A stretch of DNA of 64,000 nt, taken from positions 3,454 to 67,453 of the forward strand of contig CAWHLR010000028.1 in assembly GCA_963830235.1 (NCBI GenBank), in the 5' to 3' direction. How positions within the stretch are numbered: the first letter of the stretch is position 1; every line of letters begins with the position of its first letter. A model generated the notes under the pieces. The model had not been told where the DNA came from. It did not search any database and saw only the letters and a list, made by a program, of their open reading frames with translations. The position numbers and the translations under genes are program-made. This DNA is from an uncultured Verrucomicrobiae bacterium (GTDB lineage: Bacteria > Verrucomicrobiota > Verrucomicrobiia > Limisphaerales > UBA11358). Below, one piece after another: positions 7,901 through 11,039 of the stretch.

Positions 7901-10900
7901 TAGCTATGGGGTTGAAAATGATGAAAACGGCAATAACTGCACCTATACGATGGAGATTAAGCTTAACACCAGTGGTGCCGATTCATCCGAATGGACGGAG
8001 ACTTATACTGACATGGCTGGCCGGACAACCGAAGTCCTCTATGCCGACTACTCCTACAGCCAATCCTTCTACAATTCCAAAGGCCAGCTCTGGAAACAAG
8101 TTGATCCCGATGGCATCACCACACTTTACCAATACAACAACAAAGGCGAGCTGGCATATACCGTCGTTGACATGAATCAAAATGACAGCATTGATTTCAA
8201 CGGCCCTGACCGCGTCACACAAACAACCAATGACGTGACAACGGATAACGGCGTGAATGCCCGCCGCACGCGCGCTTATGCTTATCCCGCGGATAACTCT
8301 TCCAGTTCAATGCTTTTGTCAACCACAGAGACCTCCATGGATGGTCTGCGAACGTGCAGGATTGTCTGGAACAATGGCGCAGGCGTGACGAATCAGACGC
8401 GGACAGTCTATGCGGCCAACGGTTCCCGCCATGTCACCAATACCGCCCCGGATAATTCTTACACCGTTGGCACTTATTCCTACGGCCGGCTTGTTTCCGT
8501 CACCCGTTACGACTCCCTTGGCAATCAGTTATCGGCCATTGGCTATTCATACGACGCTCATGGCAGACAGAGTATGACGACCGACGCCCGCAATGGCGCC
8601 ACCACCTACGGCTATAACAACGCCGACCTCGTAACTTCCATCACCACGCCCGCTCCAGGTAATGGCCAGTCCGCCGAGGTCACCACCACGCTTTATGACA
8701 ACATGCTGCGCCCATACAGTGTCATCCAGCCCGATGGCACGACGGTCAATAGTGTTTATTTGCTGACCGGTGAGTTGGGATTGCAATACGGTTCGCGCAC
8801 CTATCCAGTGGCCTACAGTTACGATTACGCCGGGCGTCTGAAAACAATGACCAACTGGAGCAATTTTAGTGGCAGCAGCGGGGCACGGGTGACCATGTGG
8901 AATTACGACGCCTATCGCGGGTTCCTTGCCGGCAAAACCTACGACGGCGGCACCGCCGGGCCGTCCTACACCTACACTCCGGCTGGACGTCTGGTCTCAC
9001 GCACTTGGGCTCGTGGCGTCACAACCACCTACGGCTATGACAATGCCGGTTTGCTATCGGCTATTGGCTATTCGGACGCCACTCCAGGCGTCACGAACAC
9101 CTATGACCGCCTGGGCCACCTCACCCAACAATCAACCCCCAGCTATCAACTGAATTCCGCCTACAACCTGGCCGGCGAACTGGTAAAAGAATCCTGGTCC
9201 GGCGGCCCGTTGAACGGCCTTTCCGTGACCAACAGCTACGACCAATACCTCCGCCGCATCAACCTTGCTCTCAACTCTCAACTCTCAACCCTCAACTCGA
9301 CTGCTTACGGCTACGACCCCGCTTCACGCCTGTCCACCGTTTCAGACGGCAACAATGATTCGGCAACATACACATATCTTGCCAATTCGCCATTGGTGAG
9401 CCAGATTATGTTCAAGCAAAACGGCACGACACGGATGACGACCACCAAGTCATACGATTATCTGAACCGGCTCACAACCATCTCGTCCACTGGGAGCGCC
9501 GGCGTCCCGCCGTCAATTTCCTTCAATTACAATTACAACTCCGCCAACCAGCGCACGCGCAACGCGTTGGCCGACGGCAGTTATTGGATTTACGGTTATG
9601 ATCCGCTGGGCCAGGTGACCAACGGCTGCAAGTTTTTCGCGGACGGCACACCCGTCGCCGGCCAGCAGTTCGATTACACCTTCGACACCATCGGCAACCG
9701 CACCCAAACCCAAAGCGGCGGCGACCAGAATGGCATGAACCTGCGCGTCGCAAATTATTCCGCGAACAACCTCAATCAAATCACCAGCCGGGATGTGCCG
9801 GCTTACGTGGACATCAAGGGCGCGAGCATTGCCACCAACACGGTGACGGTCAACAGCCAGACAGCCTATCGCAAATGGGAATACTTCCGCAGCGAACTGC
9901 CCGTCAACAACAGTTCATCGGCGCTGTGGACGAGCATTGCGGTCTCGGCCACCGGACAGGGTTCCGTGTCGGGAAAAGTGTTCGTACCCCAAACACCGGA
10001 AAGCTTCGCCTACGACGCGGATGGGAACCTGATCCATGACGGGCGGTTCACCTACGCTTGGGACGCGGAGAACCGGCTGACCAACATGACCAGCCTGGCC
10101 ACCGCTCCGGCGGGGTCAAAATTGAAATTGGATTTTGCCTACGACGCCCAAGGCCGGCGGATTCAGAAGGTTGTCTCGACGAACAACGGCTCGATTTATG
10201 TGACACAATACACCAACCGGTTTGTTTATGACGGGTGGAACCTGATTGCCATCCTCAATCCTCAATCTTCCATCCTCGAATCTTTCGTATGGGGCGACGA
10301 CTTGAGCGGTTCACAGCAAGGCGCTGGCGGCGTGGGTGGATTATTGGAAGTCAGTTATTATGGAACTTCAACCACCAATTGCTTCGCCATTTACGATGGG
10401 AACGGCAATGTGGCGGCGTTGGTGAACGCAGCGGATGGAACCACGCTGGCCAGCTACGAATATGGTCCCTTCGGTGAGGTCATCCGCTCCACCGAACCGA
10501 TGGCAAAAAACAATCCTTTCCGGTTCTCAACCAAATATCAGGATGATGAAACGGATTTGCTTTACTACGGTTACAGATATTACAAGCCTTCCACCGGAAC
10601 TTGGTTAAGTCGCGATCCTATATTTGAACTGGCCCAGCAAAAAACAAAACTTAACAGCATAGAAGATTATAATTATATTTTAGGATTAAAGGGAACACAT
10701 AATATGTATACTTTTTGCGCGAACGCTGCTCCTATGTGGGTAGACACAGACGGTCGTTTTGCGGTCACCATAACAGCTGCAATAATTGCCGGAGGGTGTG
10801 TAATTGTCGCTGCAGTAATTGCATATTATGCCAGTGGTTGCCAACCTGGAGATATGAAGAATGTGGATGCTGAATACTGGTGTTGGAAACCGTGTGGAAC

Positions 10901-11039
10901 ATGTAAAACTGGCAAGACTTGGGAAAATCGACCGTGCAAATTCATACTTACATGTCAAAAACATATTATATTAAGAAATGATTGGGCTATTACATATGAT
11001 GGTTGCACTTCGTTGCGAGGAAAGCAATGTCCAAACTAA
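4965..11039 (+). CDS. Rhs / YD-repeat polymorphic toxin protein with Sec signal peptide, Cys-rich N-terminal domain, poly-Gly linker, Rhs shell and a short unusual C-terminal module
   Basis: ATG at 4965 gives MKPICRISPTWTAILLMLLVAGLITLAEEAKAQ. There are dozens of YD repeats (YSYDANGRITQ, YGYDNAGLLSAIGY, YTYDRLGHL, FAYDAQGRR...). The Rhs core end reads YDGWNLIA...FGEVIRS...NPFRFSTKYQDDETDLLYYGYRYYKPSTGTWLSRDPI...NMYTFCANAAPMWVDTDGR. Confidence 0.9.
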   Translation: MKPICRISPTWTAILLMLLVAGLITLAEEAKAQSCPAFCLETKSASAGKSKCGFPENTCNISSPPNIYLQKQEILNWNLSWEDDNKEYWADNECNPAKYMGFLNATESGDYEMTHITTRDRWSCQYTCTRSGNAHFHSVSSWDDDDGTIYTDQYSYDGQIINTSTTSCDADVWSDNGAAKNAVDEIGQALANSNDIFPNNPSCNSMVVVNPNINGSDDYSGTNCPIYDGSGDWYLDQNVHKASCIENDTTTLLSLYSTPLLLGDVMTLLAPMFDAATWRTVGVASGSANLSLDEMSAGKTKAYYRFHLSKTDVDTRYIFTWPIHITTTTTIITPTGPNNIVSKTTETKSCSVDGTGGEAISQEQHDLDIDFPGAGVTVTKSVNRLEVQVQTVSLGGGGGGGGGGGGCGSCGGGGGGSNTAGAGGANLDDPSLNISLGYNSVGFPVGNLSLNPTAPTVATPALVQLFAMDADVSAVTNNGCLRQVLASQMLADIVSNSPSQFDINFYDASNFSTASAGGLYPVTANGEFLTWRIENPGGTNDLYNLRMIEIRNGHNITNLFTWATNGSQITFLAGNGLKKETQQRFWNQANTVMTEVSKILTADDVPVYSKTNLYQVGSGGTLLASSVEGTDSHARTTTYSYTGDNRLQQVNHPDGTWESYSYDANGRITQKNWANHYATYSYTPLGGGDDGSFEPDVARTVTDYFNGSVVGRQFSVLTPNQRIEIQATDAAAVWNDPGNLYTTNNFDAYLRLASAIYPNLTARWFQYDINATGRTNTVYSGYWNGSAWVTNKVMVTVLGLNGRLLSVISTEDGLLADSTTYTNYDALGRVGTIQYLDGTSISYQYDCCGIGSMTDRNGLVTINSFDDLKRVSSKAVYDVPGMIVWHYNYDPTDHLLSTVRQGADQTSIALGVATFDDAGHQLSSMDALGNSTTYSESLDNNNNFVRTTTYPDGGTRIETFGRDGSLQSVTGAAVHRVRYSYGVENDENGNNCTYTMEIKLNTSGADSSEWTETYTDMAGRTTEVLYADYSYSQSFYNSKGQLWKQVDPDGITTLYQYNNKGELAYTVVDMNQNDSIDFNGPDRVTQTTNDVTTDNGVNARRTRAYAYPADNSSSSMLLSTTETSMDGLRTCRIVWNNGAGVTNQTRTVYAANGSRHVTNTAPDNSYTVGTYSYGRLVSVTRYDSLGNQLSAIGYSYDAHGRQSMTTDARNGATTYGYNNADLVTSITTPAPGNGQSAEVTTTLYDNMLRPYSVIQPDGTTVNSVYLLTGELGLQYGSRTYPVAYSYDYAGRLKTMTNWSNFSGSSGARVTMWNYDAYRGFLAGKTYDGGTAGPSYTYTPAGRLVSRTWARGVTTTYGYDNAGLLSAIGYSDATPGVTNTYDRLGHLTQQSTPSYQLNSAYNLAGELVKESWSGGPLNGLSVTNSYDQYLRRINLALNSQLSTLNSTAYGYDPASRLSTVSDGNNDSATYTYLANSPLVSQIMFKQNGTTRMTTTKSYDYLNRLTTISSTGSAGVPPSISFNYNYNSANQRTRNALADGSYWIYGYDPLGQVTNGCKFFADGTPVAGQQFDYTFDTIGNRTQTQSGGDQNGMNLRVANYSANNLNQITSRDVPAYVDIKGASIATNTVTVNSQTAYRKWEYFRSELPVNNSSSALWTSIAVSATGQGSVSGKVFVPQTPESFAYDADGNLIHDGRFTYAWDAENRLTNMTSLATAPAGSKLKLDFAYDAQGRRIQKVVSTNNGSIYVTQYTNRFVYDGWNLIAILNPQSSILESFVWGDDLSGSQQGAGGVGGLLEVSYYGTSTTNCFAIYDGNGNVAALVNAADGTTLASYEYGPFGEVIRSTEPMAKNNPFRFSTKYQDDETDLLYYGYRYYKPSTGTWLSRDPIFELAQQKTKLNSIEDYNYILGLKGTHNMYTFCANAAPMWVDTDGRFAVTITAAIIAGGCVIVAAVIAYYASGCQPGDMKNVDAEYWCWKPCGTCKTGKTWENRPCKFILTCQKHIILRNDWAITYDGCTSLRGKQCPN
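6147..6212 (+). repeat. (GGT/GGC)n simple-sequence tract encoding G12-C-G-S-C-G6 inside the Rhs gene
   Basis: ggtggcggtggtggcggtggtggcggtggtggcggatgtggtagttgcggtggtggcggcggtggt read directly. Confidence 0.9.

Follow-up and report, generated by a model that had tools for sequence, protein, structure and literature searches.

The stretch of DNA analysed here, in the following called the window, comprises 64,000 nucleotides (nt) of contig CAWHLR010000028.1 from an uncultured Verrucomicrobiae bacterium. On its forward strand lies a gene for an Rhs/YD-repeat protein of 2024 aa (4965..11039, stop codon included; the open reading frame (ORF) as such spans 4953..11039, with its first ATG at 4965), whose Rhs-associated core is followed by a tail of 93 aa, and the end of this gene is overlapped by a small second gene encoding 120 aa (11027..11389). 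Our analysis assigns the tail and the product of the small gene to a rare and undescribed family of payload and partner within an ordinary Rhs polymorphic toxin locus. The downstream ORF is a candidate cognate immunity gene, whose product would protect the producer against the tail.

The core and the 93-aa tail

The assignment of the large gene follows from its translation and from profile matches. Pfam RHS_repeat (PF05593) matched the protein with an E-value of 5.8e-29 in six stretches, corresponding to the RHS/YD repeats of the shell, and NCBIfam TIGR01643 matched above its curated cutoff (E 1.1e-10). The model of the Rhs-associated core, TIGR03696, scored 58.5 bits at a curated cutoff of 32.5 bits and covered aa 1833-1930 with profile positions 1-75 of 76. 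Because this alignment reaches profile position 75 of 76, the end of the core (10461..10757, aa 1833-1931) was placed at D1927-T-D-G-R1931 (10743..10757), a motif corresponding to the canonical DPxGL, and the tail starts directly after it at aa 1932. An earlier note on this DNA had already taken NMYTFCANAAPMWVDTDGR to be positionally equivalent to PxxxxDPxGL, which is borne out by the end of the TIGR03696 match at DTDGR. The core contains both self-cleavage Asp positions, D1884 in SRDPI and D1927 in DTDGR. Compared with PxxxxDPxGL, however, T replaces P and R replaces L, and the two Asp are 43 instead of about 23 residues apart. In Tse5 the catalytic Asp residues are D1141 and D1164 and the released fragment, Tse5-CT, begins at I1169, five residues past D1164 (PMC10684867, PMC9637101).

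The tail is encoded by nt 10758-11036 and extends from F1932 to N2024. It begins with a predicted transmembrane helix of 24 residues, FAVTITAAIIAGGCVIVAAVIAYY (10758..10829), which is assigned from its hydropathy (Kyte-Doolittle 19-residue maximum 2.56), from a modelled helix and from invariant columns, and continues with a domain of 69 aa (10830..11036) that contains eight Cys and a predicted three-stranded beta-sheet, as judged from the Cys count, the structural model, conservation and selection. A hydrophobic segment of about 24 residues followed by 69 aa with eight Cys is just what the earlier note had described, although it had overlooked a ninth Cys which is located in the helix and is invariant across the family. 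Nine of the 93 tail residues are Cys, compared with 23 of 1931 in the remaining protein, an enrichment that is not due to chance (binomial P = 2e-6). More than half of the helix (13 of 24 residues) consists of the small residues Ala, Gly, Thr and Cys, arranged in i/i+4 stripes that resemble those of tightly packing helices.

An AlphaFold2 model of the tail based on a four-sequence alignment was of moderate quality (mean predicted local distance difference test score (pLDDT) 69.7). It contains a helix at tail residues 4-24, modelled at low confidence (pLDDT 34-43), and a Cys domain with pLDDT values of 80-87 and three long beta strands at residues 34-46, 54-68 and 76-82. One helix and three beta strands do not correspond to the helical bundle fold of pore-formers or ionophores. 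The tail is under purifying selection. Between two related copies from other contigs (L001 and L002, see below) the non-synonymous rate (dN) was 0.009 and the synonymous rate (dS) 0.098, giving a dN/dS of about 0.09, and between the window and L002 the corresponding proportions of differences were 0.155 (pN) and 0.92 (pS).

Searches with the tail yielded no known family. In Pfam and NCBIfam nothing was found at E<=0.1 except noise (CxC3, E 0.094), and, noise aside, no Pfam family recurred at E<=1 when six members of the tail family were scanned. No significant match was obtained with the Tox- and Ntox-type profiles or with those for nucleases, deaminases, ADP-ribosyltransferases, peptidases and the colicin pore domain, and none at all with PADLOC. 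When all PDB chain sequences were searched with a profile, a single match was obtained, at E 0.34, and Foldseek searches with the tail model gave best E-values of 0.64 against PDB (TM 0.26) and of 0.29 against BFVD. The view that the tail is neither a recognisable enzyme nor a known Rhs tail is therefore upheld by all of these searches.

Several candidate assignments were considered and rejected. The top Foldseek rows, SAS-6, leukocidin stems and QueD, are noise with TM-scores up to 0.39, and a beta-pore former, as might be read from the leukocidin and CytK rows, was dismissed as these rows are long beta-hairpins. A zinc ribbon or zinc knuckle would need two conserved knuckles; the window copy has a single CxxC, which becomes CxC in the alignment with two further lineages (L006 and L012), and because of this change in spacing the Cys pattern is not that of a zinc knuckle. 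PEP-CTERM-type sorting signals are common in Verrucomicrobiota, but in these a short basic tail follows the helix, not a conserved folded domain of 69 aa.

Distribution of the tail and exchange of the cassette

A word-index homologue search with the tail alone found nothing. Searching 1.84 billion representative proteins exhaustively with HMMER gave five matches, three of which are real (P0001 with 74%, P0002 with 50% and P0004 with 50% identity), so that the family amounts to three clusters at 50% identity among all of these proteins. The other two are spurious and align over the Cys-containing stretch alone: P0003 is a WD40 repeat protein matching via 'TGECLLTCQGHQ'-type repeats and P0005 a large Gram-positive surface protein, both without a link to Rhs.

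Combining the HMMER matches with scans of genome and metagenome contigs and with contexts retrieved via the partner protein resulted in six lineages. Besides the window with its full-length Rhs protein, these are L002/L003 (the contigs of P0001, L002 being a 91-kb metagenome contig), L001 from Limisphaera sp. 4302-co (Verrucomicrobiota, Limisphaerales), L006 (P0002), L012/L013 and L004/L005 (P0004). The earlier note had suggested to look in metagenomes for recurrence of the tail on Rhs or other scaffolds, and every one of the six lineages carries it on an Rhs core. In all six, the motif D-x-(D/N)-G-(R/K) of this core immediately precedes the tail, and the last core residue is thus R or K in all family members. 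Invariant positions of the helix are A, T, I, G, C, A, A and I, and those of the domain are six of the eight Cys together with G28, D33, K35, E40, Y41, W44, K54, W56, R59 and W77. All eight domain Cys are kept in five of the six lineages; the last two are absent together in L004/L005, which suggests, as far as an alignment can tell, that these two Cys may pair with each other. In L004 (68-1252) and L005 (18-248) the C-terminal third of the tail is replaced by a Pro/Ser/Ala-rich sequence and a partner-like ORF is not evident downstream. This tail may be either a decaying copy or a shorter functional form.

When the window was compared with the Limisphaera-type copies, identity differed strongly between segments. 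It was 40-44% in the core, 59-65% in the stretch up to SRDP, 40-43% in the linker between the two Asp motifs, 76% in the helix and 71-72% in the Cys domain. In L002 the tail is carried by an orphan Rhs C-terminal fragment of 316 aa, which is part of an array of at least four such fragments. These share a common core block (...YDGNGNVWNLVSA...NPFRFSTKRTEDFTGLVLYEYR.Y.PT.GRW.SRD...) and then continue with unrelated tails, so that cassette polymorphism can be seen directly here, as one core with at least four different tails. The other tails of the array have no Pfam family either, and an unrecognisable tail is therefore not in itself unusual in Verrucomicrobiota. Within the array (L002 1-11000), one tail (263-1489) is also very rich in Cys (CYKKCGKRSGGCCMISFCWF...CCCRLCWHERK) and a frameshift divides a further fragment in two (8497-9207 and 9204-9800). 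In L003 part of the L002 array is repeated, with an internal stop just before the tail. No orphan Rhs fragments or extra immunity copies were found within the window.

The base composition of the window points in the same direction as the array. A two-segment likelihood scan of third-codon positions located a break in their GC content (GC3) at nt 10503 (codon 1847), inside TIGR03696, with a GC3 of 0.71 before and 0.33 after this point. The break lies 85 codons upstream of the junction between core and tail, and the low-GC stretch ends at about 11400, just past the downstream ORF. Overall GC is 0.565 in the window, 0.54 in the Rhs shell and 0.40 at 10541-11400. Since low GC runs from 10503 to about 11400, the foreign segment (10503..11400, forward strand) takes in the final 85 core codons together with the tail and the downstream gene, and a break inside the core is what would be expected from recombination through the conserved core end. 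The earlier note had seen an AT-rich span from 10.54 to 11.40 kb; its low GC, its end and its start ahead of the core-end motif stood, whereas the start itself moved to 10503. Likewise, its proposal of a swapped toxin/immunity cassette agrees with the GC3 break in the core end, with the identity of 71-76% in the tail on Rhs cores that are only 36-44% identical to that of the window, and with the array of L002. The low-GC module is horizontally exchanged and supplies the core end, the tail and the overlapping downstream gene, and the locus as a whole is very probably a polymorphic toxin/immunity cassette. An independent public assembly (Logan ERR11523660, L014) differs from window positions 9825-11513 by one mismatch in 1689 nt, so that the junctions between core, tail and downstream gene are not an assembly artefact of the window.

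The downstream gene

The candidate immunity gene starts with an ATG at 11027, resulting in an overlap of 13 nt with the Rhs stop, and is preceded by GAGGA 5 nt upstream. Its product has a very hydrophobic N-terminal segment (Kyte-Doolittle 3.2), which is taken as a membrane anchor, and then a helical domain of about 70 aa, which appears to be a HEAT-like domain of two repeats. Pfam HEAT_2 matched it with an E-value of 1.8e-5 and 25.4 bits, below the curated cutoff of 27.7, and the matches of the homologues are also weak. An AlphaFold2 model built with six homologues (mean pLDDT 81, and 85-93 over the soluble domain) consists of one long N-terminal helix and four short helices. With Foldseek the soluble part was matched to alphaRep and HEAT-like proteins at a probability of 1.0, with a root-mean-square deviation of 1.3-3.7 A over 57-70 residues and a target-normalised TM-score of up to 0.72; the best E-value was only 6e-3, the E-values being modest because the domain is small.

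Homologues of this partner were found downstream of the tail in L001, L002, L003, L006 and L012, that is in four further lineages and in all four that have a readable, open sequence at this position. They are 29-33% identical to the window copy, indicating a faster divergence than that of the tail, and share the motif ..(V/I)SVL.(A/T)RRPY..(E/A)V..VL..A..(D/E)D..(V/I)R. The overlap of start and stop, CAATGTCCxAACTxA, is common to the window and L001-L003, while some 90 nt separate the two genes in L006 and L012. The exact immunity protein of the window is not on record in public assemblies, where a variant differing by one residue was found. A scan for promoters and terminators around the cassette gave results no better than shuffled sequence.

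A further homologue of the partner, P0011 (143 aa), is encoded in L007-L011 (8001-8432; 5062-5493 in L011) without an upstream Rhs gene. Its hosts are three metagenome-assembled genomes at NCBI (GCA_007124655.1, GCA_003563235.1 and GCA_003559955.1) and two ENA assemblies, and the gene follows two small overlapping ORFs of 104 and 63 aa (104 and 56 aa in L011). The presence of a partner homologue alone, without a toxin, is how orphan immunity genes behave.

The N-terminal region of the Rhs protein

According to Kyte-Doolittle hydropathy, the whole Rhs protein has just two hydrophobic peaks, namely the helix of the tail and an N-terminal signal-like sequence. The latter is a predicted Sec-type signal peptide (MKPICR...AKA, followed by Q; 4965..5060), for which the hydrophobic peak was supplemented by reading the n, h and c regions by eye. 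The N-terminal 480 aa or so of the mature protein (window 5061-6400) contain 16 Cys and matched no domain of Pfam or NCBIfam; this region may serve in receptor binding, in surface attachment or as a plug. Together with the signal sequence, these Cys fit with an oxidising, extracytoplasmic life of the whole protein. A glycine tract, GGGGGGGGGGGGCGSCGGGGGG (window 6147-6212, aa 395-416), at which GC and GC skew show a local spike, follows the N-terminal region and precedes the YD shell.

Scanning the Rhs protein and some 30 ORFs around it with Pfam revealed no PAAR, VgrG or other type VI secretion system (T6SS) family. With its Sec-type N-terminus and lacking a linkage to PAAR, VgrG or T6SS genes, the protein does not appear to be one of the T6SS-delivered Rhs effectors.

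Predicted topology and a possible mechanism

In all four partner proteins checked, the N-terminal flank of the anchor carries a charge of +2 to +4 and the 15 residues past the helix one of -1 to -2. By the positive-inside rule these proteins should be oriented N-in/C-out, which would place their HEAT-like domain in the periplasm. The tails behave in the same way: in all five checked, the 15 residues past the helix carry -1 to -4, and the conserved R/K stands immediately before the helix. As these flanking charges also favour N-in/C-out, the Cys domain would lie outside, as does the HEAT-like domain of the partner, and both are thus predicted on the periplasmic side. An envelope or membrane target, as put forward in the earlier note, is in keeping with this prediction and with the membrane anchor of the partner, and the payload probably acts at the inner membrane or at its periplasmic face.

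From these features the following mechanism can be proposed. The Rhs protein would be exported by Sec, its shell enclosing the tail, and by analogy with Tse5 aspartyl self-cleavage of the core after R1931 would free the 93-aa peptide. Once the peptide has reached a neighbouring diderm cell, its Ala/Gly-rich helix would insert N-terminus-first into the inner membrane, whereas the disulfide-locked beta domain would remain on the periplasmic face of the target. In the weakest step, the helices would self-associate or dock onto a membrane protein, upon which membrane potential or barrier would be lost; the Cys-rich domain would contribute stability, orientation or receptor binding. Protection of the producer would come from the downstream protein, which would use its anchor helix and its periplasmic HEAT-like domain to bind the tail within or at the membrane. 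Taken as a whole, this chain of a Sec-exported Rhs toxin, a membrane-inserting payload and an immunity partner seems to us slightly favoured, whereas a pore or depolarisation as its effect is a tentative suggestion that is rather more likely to be wrong than right.

A number of points speak against this mechanism. Toxicity, cleavage, disulfides and topology are all deduced, the helix was modelled at low confidence, and one helix offers little from which to build a pore. The net charge of the Cys domain varies from +4 to -5 across the tails and is thus not conserved, which argues against a simple cationic membrane-active peptide. The self-cleavage motif is degenerate in both its substitutions and its Asp spacing, and only in the window is the tail found on a full-length Rhs protein, the other copies being orphans or contig fragments. 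No genes for a T6SS or another secretion or delivery system were found in the window. Finally, a strongly hydrophobic helix at the C-terminus of a protein with a Sec signal should, in the ordinary case, be a stop-transfer anchor in the producer, which would leave the Cys domain in the cytoplasm, in conflict with encapsulation. Precedents for hydrophobic tails on Sec-exported proteins do exist, however, in CdiA proteins with ionophore tails (PMC11630599) and in BiTLP with its transmembrane-containing C-terminal domain (PMC13018210).

Alternative explanations

The stop-transfer objection can be extended to a reading in which the tail is not a toxin at all, but tethers the Rhs body to the inner membrane of the producer, with the 8-Cys domain as a cytoplasmic metal-binding module and the downstream membrane protein as an accessory partner. 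A Sec-type signal combined with a C-terminal hydrophobic helix is the textbook type I layout, and the single CxxC of the window copy and the lack of delivery machinery in the window would also suit such an anchor. It is nevertheless improbable, since the module resembles polymorphic toxin cassettes in its foreign composition, in the orphan array with alternative tails on the same core and in a small partner gene that is conserved, overlapping and present alone in other genomes. Moreover, the flank charges favour N-in/C-out, whereas a type I anchor would be the other way round, the CxxC is no zinc knuckle given its change to CxC in L006 and L012, and the soluble domain of the partner is predicted in the periplasm, away from a cytoplasmic Cys domain. 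The reverse arrangement, in which the helix is an entry device across the inner membrane of the target and the 69-aa domain acts in the cytoplasm, could draw on the Ala/Gly content and the i/i+4 small-residue pattern of the helix and on the T6SS DNase Tde1, whose glycine-zipper region is required for translocation (PMC10240207). The eight conserved Cys of an exported protein are, however, in keeping with an oxidising compartment, the immunity domain is predicted periplasmic, and a 69-aa beta domain without a catalytic signature or a match to nucleases, deaminases, ADP-ribosyltransferases or peptidases is unlikely to be an enzyme, so that we regard entry of this kind as just as improbable as a producer anchor. 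Least of all do we believe in a decayed, non-functional remnant or an assembly artefact. A degenerate self-cleavage motif, the internal stop just before the tail in the related copy L003 and a transposase gene adjoining the cassette might point to decay, but the reading frame is intact, the start/stop overlap with its Shine-Dalgarno sequence is conserved, purifying selection is strong, the Cys are kept across lineages only 42-73% identical, and an independent sequencing run gave the same sequence.

A more serious competitor to a membrane-inserting, potential-dissipating payload is a membrane-tethered binding toxin that forms no pore. Here the helix would only anchor and orient the beta domain, which would block a specific target at the periplasmic face and would itself be neutralised through direct binding by the HEAT-like domain; a cell-wall precursor or an envelope-assembly or transport protein might be such a target. 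In favour of this explanation, conservation in the Cys domain is close to that in the helix (71% compared with 76%), and ten of its non-Cys residues are invariant, which hints at a defined surface for binding. The immunity protein, moreover, has a soluble repeat domain of a protein-binding type on what is predicted to be the same side, unlike the immunity proteins of known ionophore toxins, which are all-membrane hairpins (PMC11630599; Tsi5, PMC9637101). Searches in PDB, Foldseek and Pfam, on the other hand, showed no similarity to any known binder or inhibitor, no target can be named, and the absence of the last third and of two Cys in L004/L005 means either that this part is dispensable or that the copy is decaying. 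On the whole we consider this explanation rather unlikely. The same doubt applies to its boldest form, a single-pass, disulfide-locked 'tethered ligand' that would lodge in the inner membrane of the target, would obstruct a specific envelope machine or precursor from the periplasm with its beta domain, would constitute a new mode of action for Rhs payloads and would be countered by a membrane-tethered HEAT-like decoy.

Comparison with known systems

The closest parallel to the membrane-inserting payload proposed above is Tse5 (RhsP1, PA2684) of Pseudomonas aeruginosa with its immunity protein Tsi5 (PMC9637101, PMC10684867). The Rhs core of Tse5 ends in a self-cleavage motif whose two Asp positions are also present in the window, Tse5-CT is, like the tail, a short C-terminal fragment with transmembrane segments and without an enzymatic signature, and, as proposed here, the target is the inner membrane and an integral membrane immunity protein is encoded just downstream (PMC9637101, PMC10684867). 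No sequence similarity between Tse5-CT and the tail was found, however, either by profile search of PDB or by exhaustive HMMER search. Tse5-CT has about 150 aa, is all helical with several transmembrane or amphipathic helices and lacks a Cys-rich domain. In addition, Tse5 has a PAAR-like N-terminus and is fired by a T6SS, whereas the protein of the window has a Sec-type signal and no T6SS genes nearby, and Tsi5 has two transmembrane segments and no soluble repeat domain, whereas the partner has one anchor and a HEAT-like domain.

BiTLP from Bacillus inaquosorum is, like the Rhs protein of the window, a YD/Rhs-shell protein with a Sec signal and a downstream immunity gene, and its cleaved C-terminal fragment is hydrophobic with one predicted transmembrane region, as is the tail (PMC13018210). 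For toxicity to E. coli this fragment had to be sent to the periplasm, and it permeabilises cells (PMC13018210). BiTLP comes from a monoderm and has a teneurin superfold with FN-plug and NHL propeller, while in the window protein Pfam found nothing beyond RHS repeats. No disulfide-rich domain was reported for BiTLP. Given such published membrane-inserting Rhs/YD payloads (Tse5-CT, PMC9637101, PMC10684867; the C-terminal domain of BiTLP, PMC13018210), the earlier note overstated how unusual the functional class is, although it was right in that the family itself is undescribed.

The ionophore toxins of contact-dependent inhibition (the CdiA-CT EC93 family and their CdiI proteins) are likewise Sec-exported with hydrophobic C-terminal payloads; they enter the inner membrane of the target from the periplasm and dissipate the membrane potential, their immunity proteins being small membrane proteins (PMC11630599). 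Their payloads, however, are predicted five-helix bundles with separate entry domains, located on CdiA filaments after VENN and not on an Rhs protein as a helix with a beta domain, and their CdiI proteins are two-helix hairpins, unlike the partner with one anchor helix and a HEAT-like domain. The use of HEAT-type repeats as an immunity scaffold, Imm-HEAT, has been described in Verrucomicrobia and Planctomycetes among others, and secreted or transmembrane immunity proteins are known to accompany surface-acting toxins (Zhang et al. 2012, PMC3482391). The listed Imm-HEAT proteins pair with the cytoplasmic nuclease toxin Tox-REase-7, in contrast to the partner with its approximately two repeats, its membrane anchor and its predicted periplasmic location.

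Class II microcins and other small disulfide bacteriocins are below 10 kDa, combine Gly/Ala-rich hydrophobic stretches with disulfides, act on the inner membrane from the periplasmic side and are accompanied by small membrane immunity proteins. They differ in being stand-alone products with a leader peptide and export by a dedicated ATP-binding cassette (ABC) transporter, not the payload of an Rhs shell of 2000 aa. No sequence relation between microcins and the tail is known.

Neighbourhood of the locus

Upstream, the window encodes a secreted BspA-type leucine-rich-repeat protein (2329-4914; LRR_5 E 1e-11, with signal peptide) whose gene, in the same orientation as the Rhs gene, stops some 50 nt short of the Rhs start. 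The two may be co-transcribed, with the repeat protein serving in adhesion or as an accessory.

Immediately right of the cassette lies a gene for an IS200-like/REP-associated tyrosine transposase (11524-12667; Pfam Y1_Tnp E 1.5e-12) with a likely start near 11704. The transposase is bracketed by an element of 24-29 nt, AGGGGTCAGTCCTCACTATTGACA, present in two tandem 30-nt copies at 11616-11675 and in an inverted copy at 12639-12667. A stretch of 60 nt (11548-11607) shares 98% identity with an internal part of the transposase gene (12033-12092) and encodes ...GNGYLRTVCDYVHLNPVRAK followed by a stop; it is a truncated 3' fragment of a second transposase copy, located between the immunity and transposase genes.

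Further away, two Sel1-repeat proteins (13912-14679 and 38742-40217; reverse strand) are encoded in surroundings where glycoside hydrolases predominate (GH2, GH28, GH43 and a fucosidase), and a PLD-like protein at 37570-38712. The Sel1 and PLD-like genes have no obvious link to the Rhs locus. Other neighbours encode ScpAB, a sulfate ABC transporter and a porin.

Significance

Rhs tails constitute a natural library of antibacterial activities, in which most characterised members are cytoplasmic enzymes and few act on membranes. New in the window are the payload family and its membrane-tethered HEAT-like partner, while the Rhs polymorphic system as such and membrane-acting Rhs/YD payloads are known. 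Because the family is rare, with its three clusters at 50% identity, its ecological reach is small and its interest is mechanistic.

The locus bears on the question of how Sec-exported Rhs proteins of Verrucomicrobiota without a nearby T6SS reach their targets; we know of no established delivery route for Rhs proteins in this phylum. A related puzzle is how a strongly hydrophobic segment passes Sec without arrest. The partner would show in compact form how a tethered HEAT-like protein neutralises a toxin at the membrane. If active, the 93 residues of helix and disulfide-rich mini-domain would be among the smallest Rhs toxins and would indicate that the inner membrane is vulnerable at a site on its periplasmic face.

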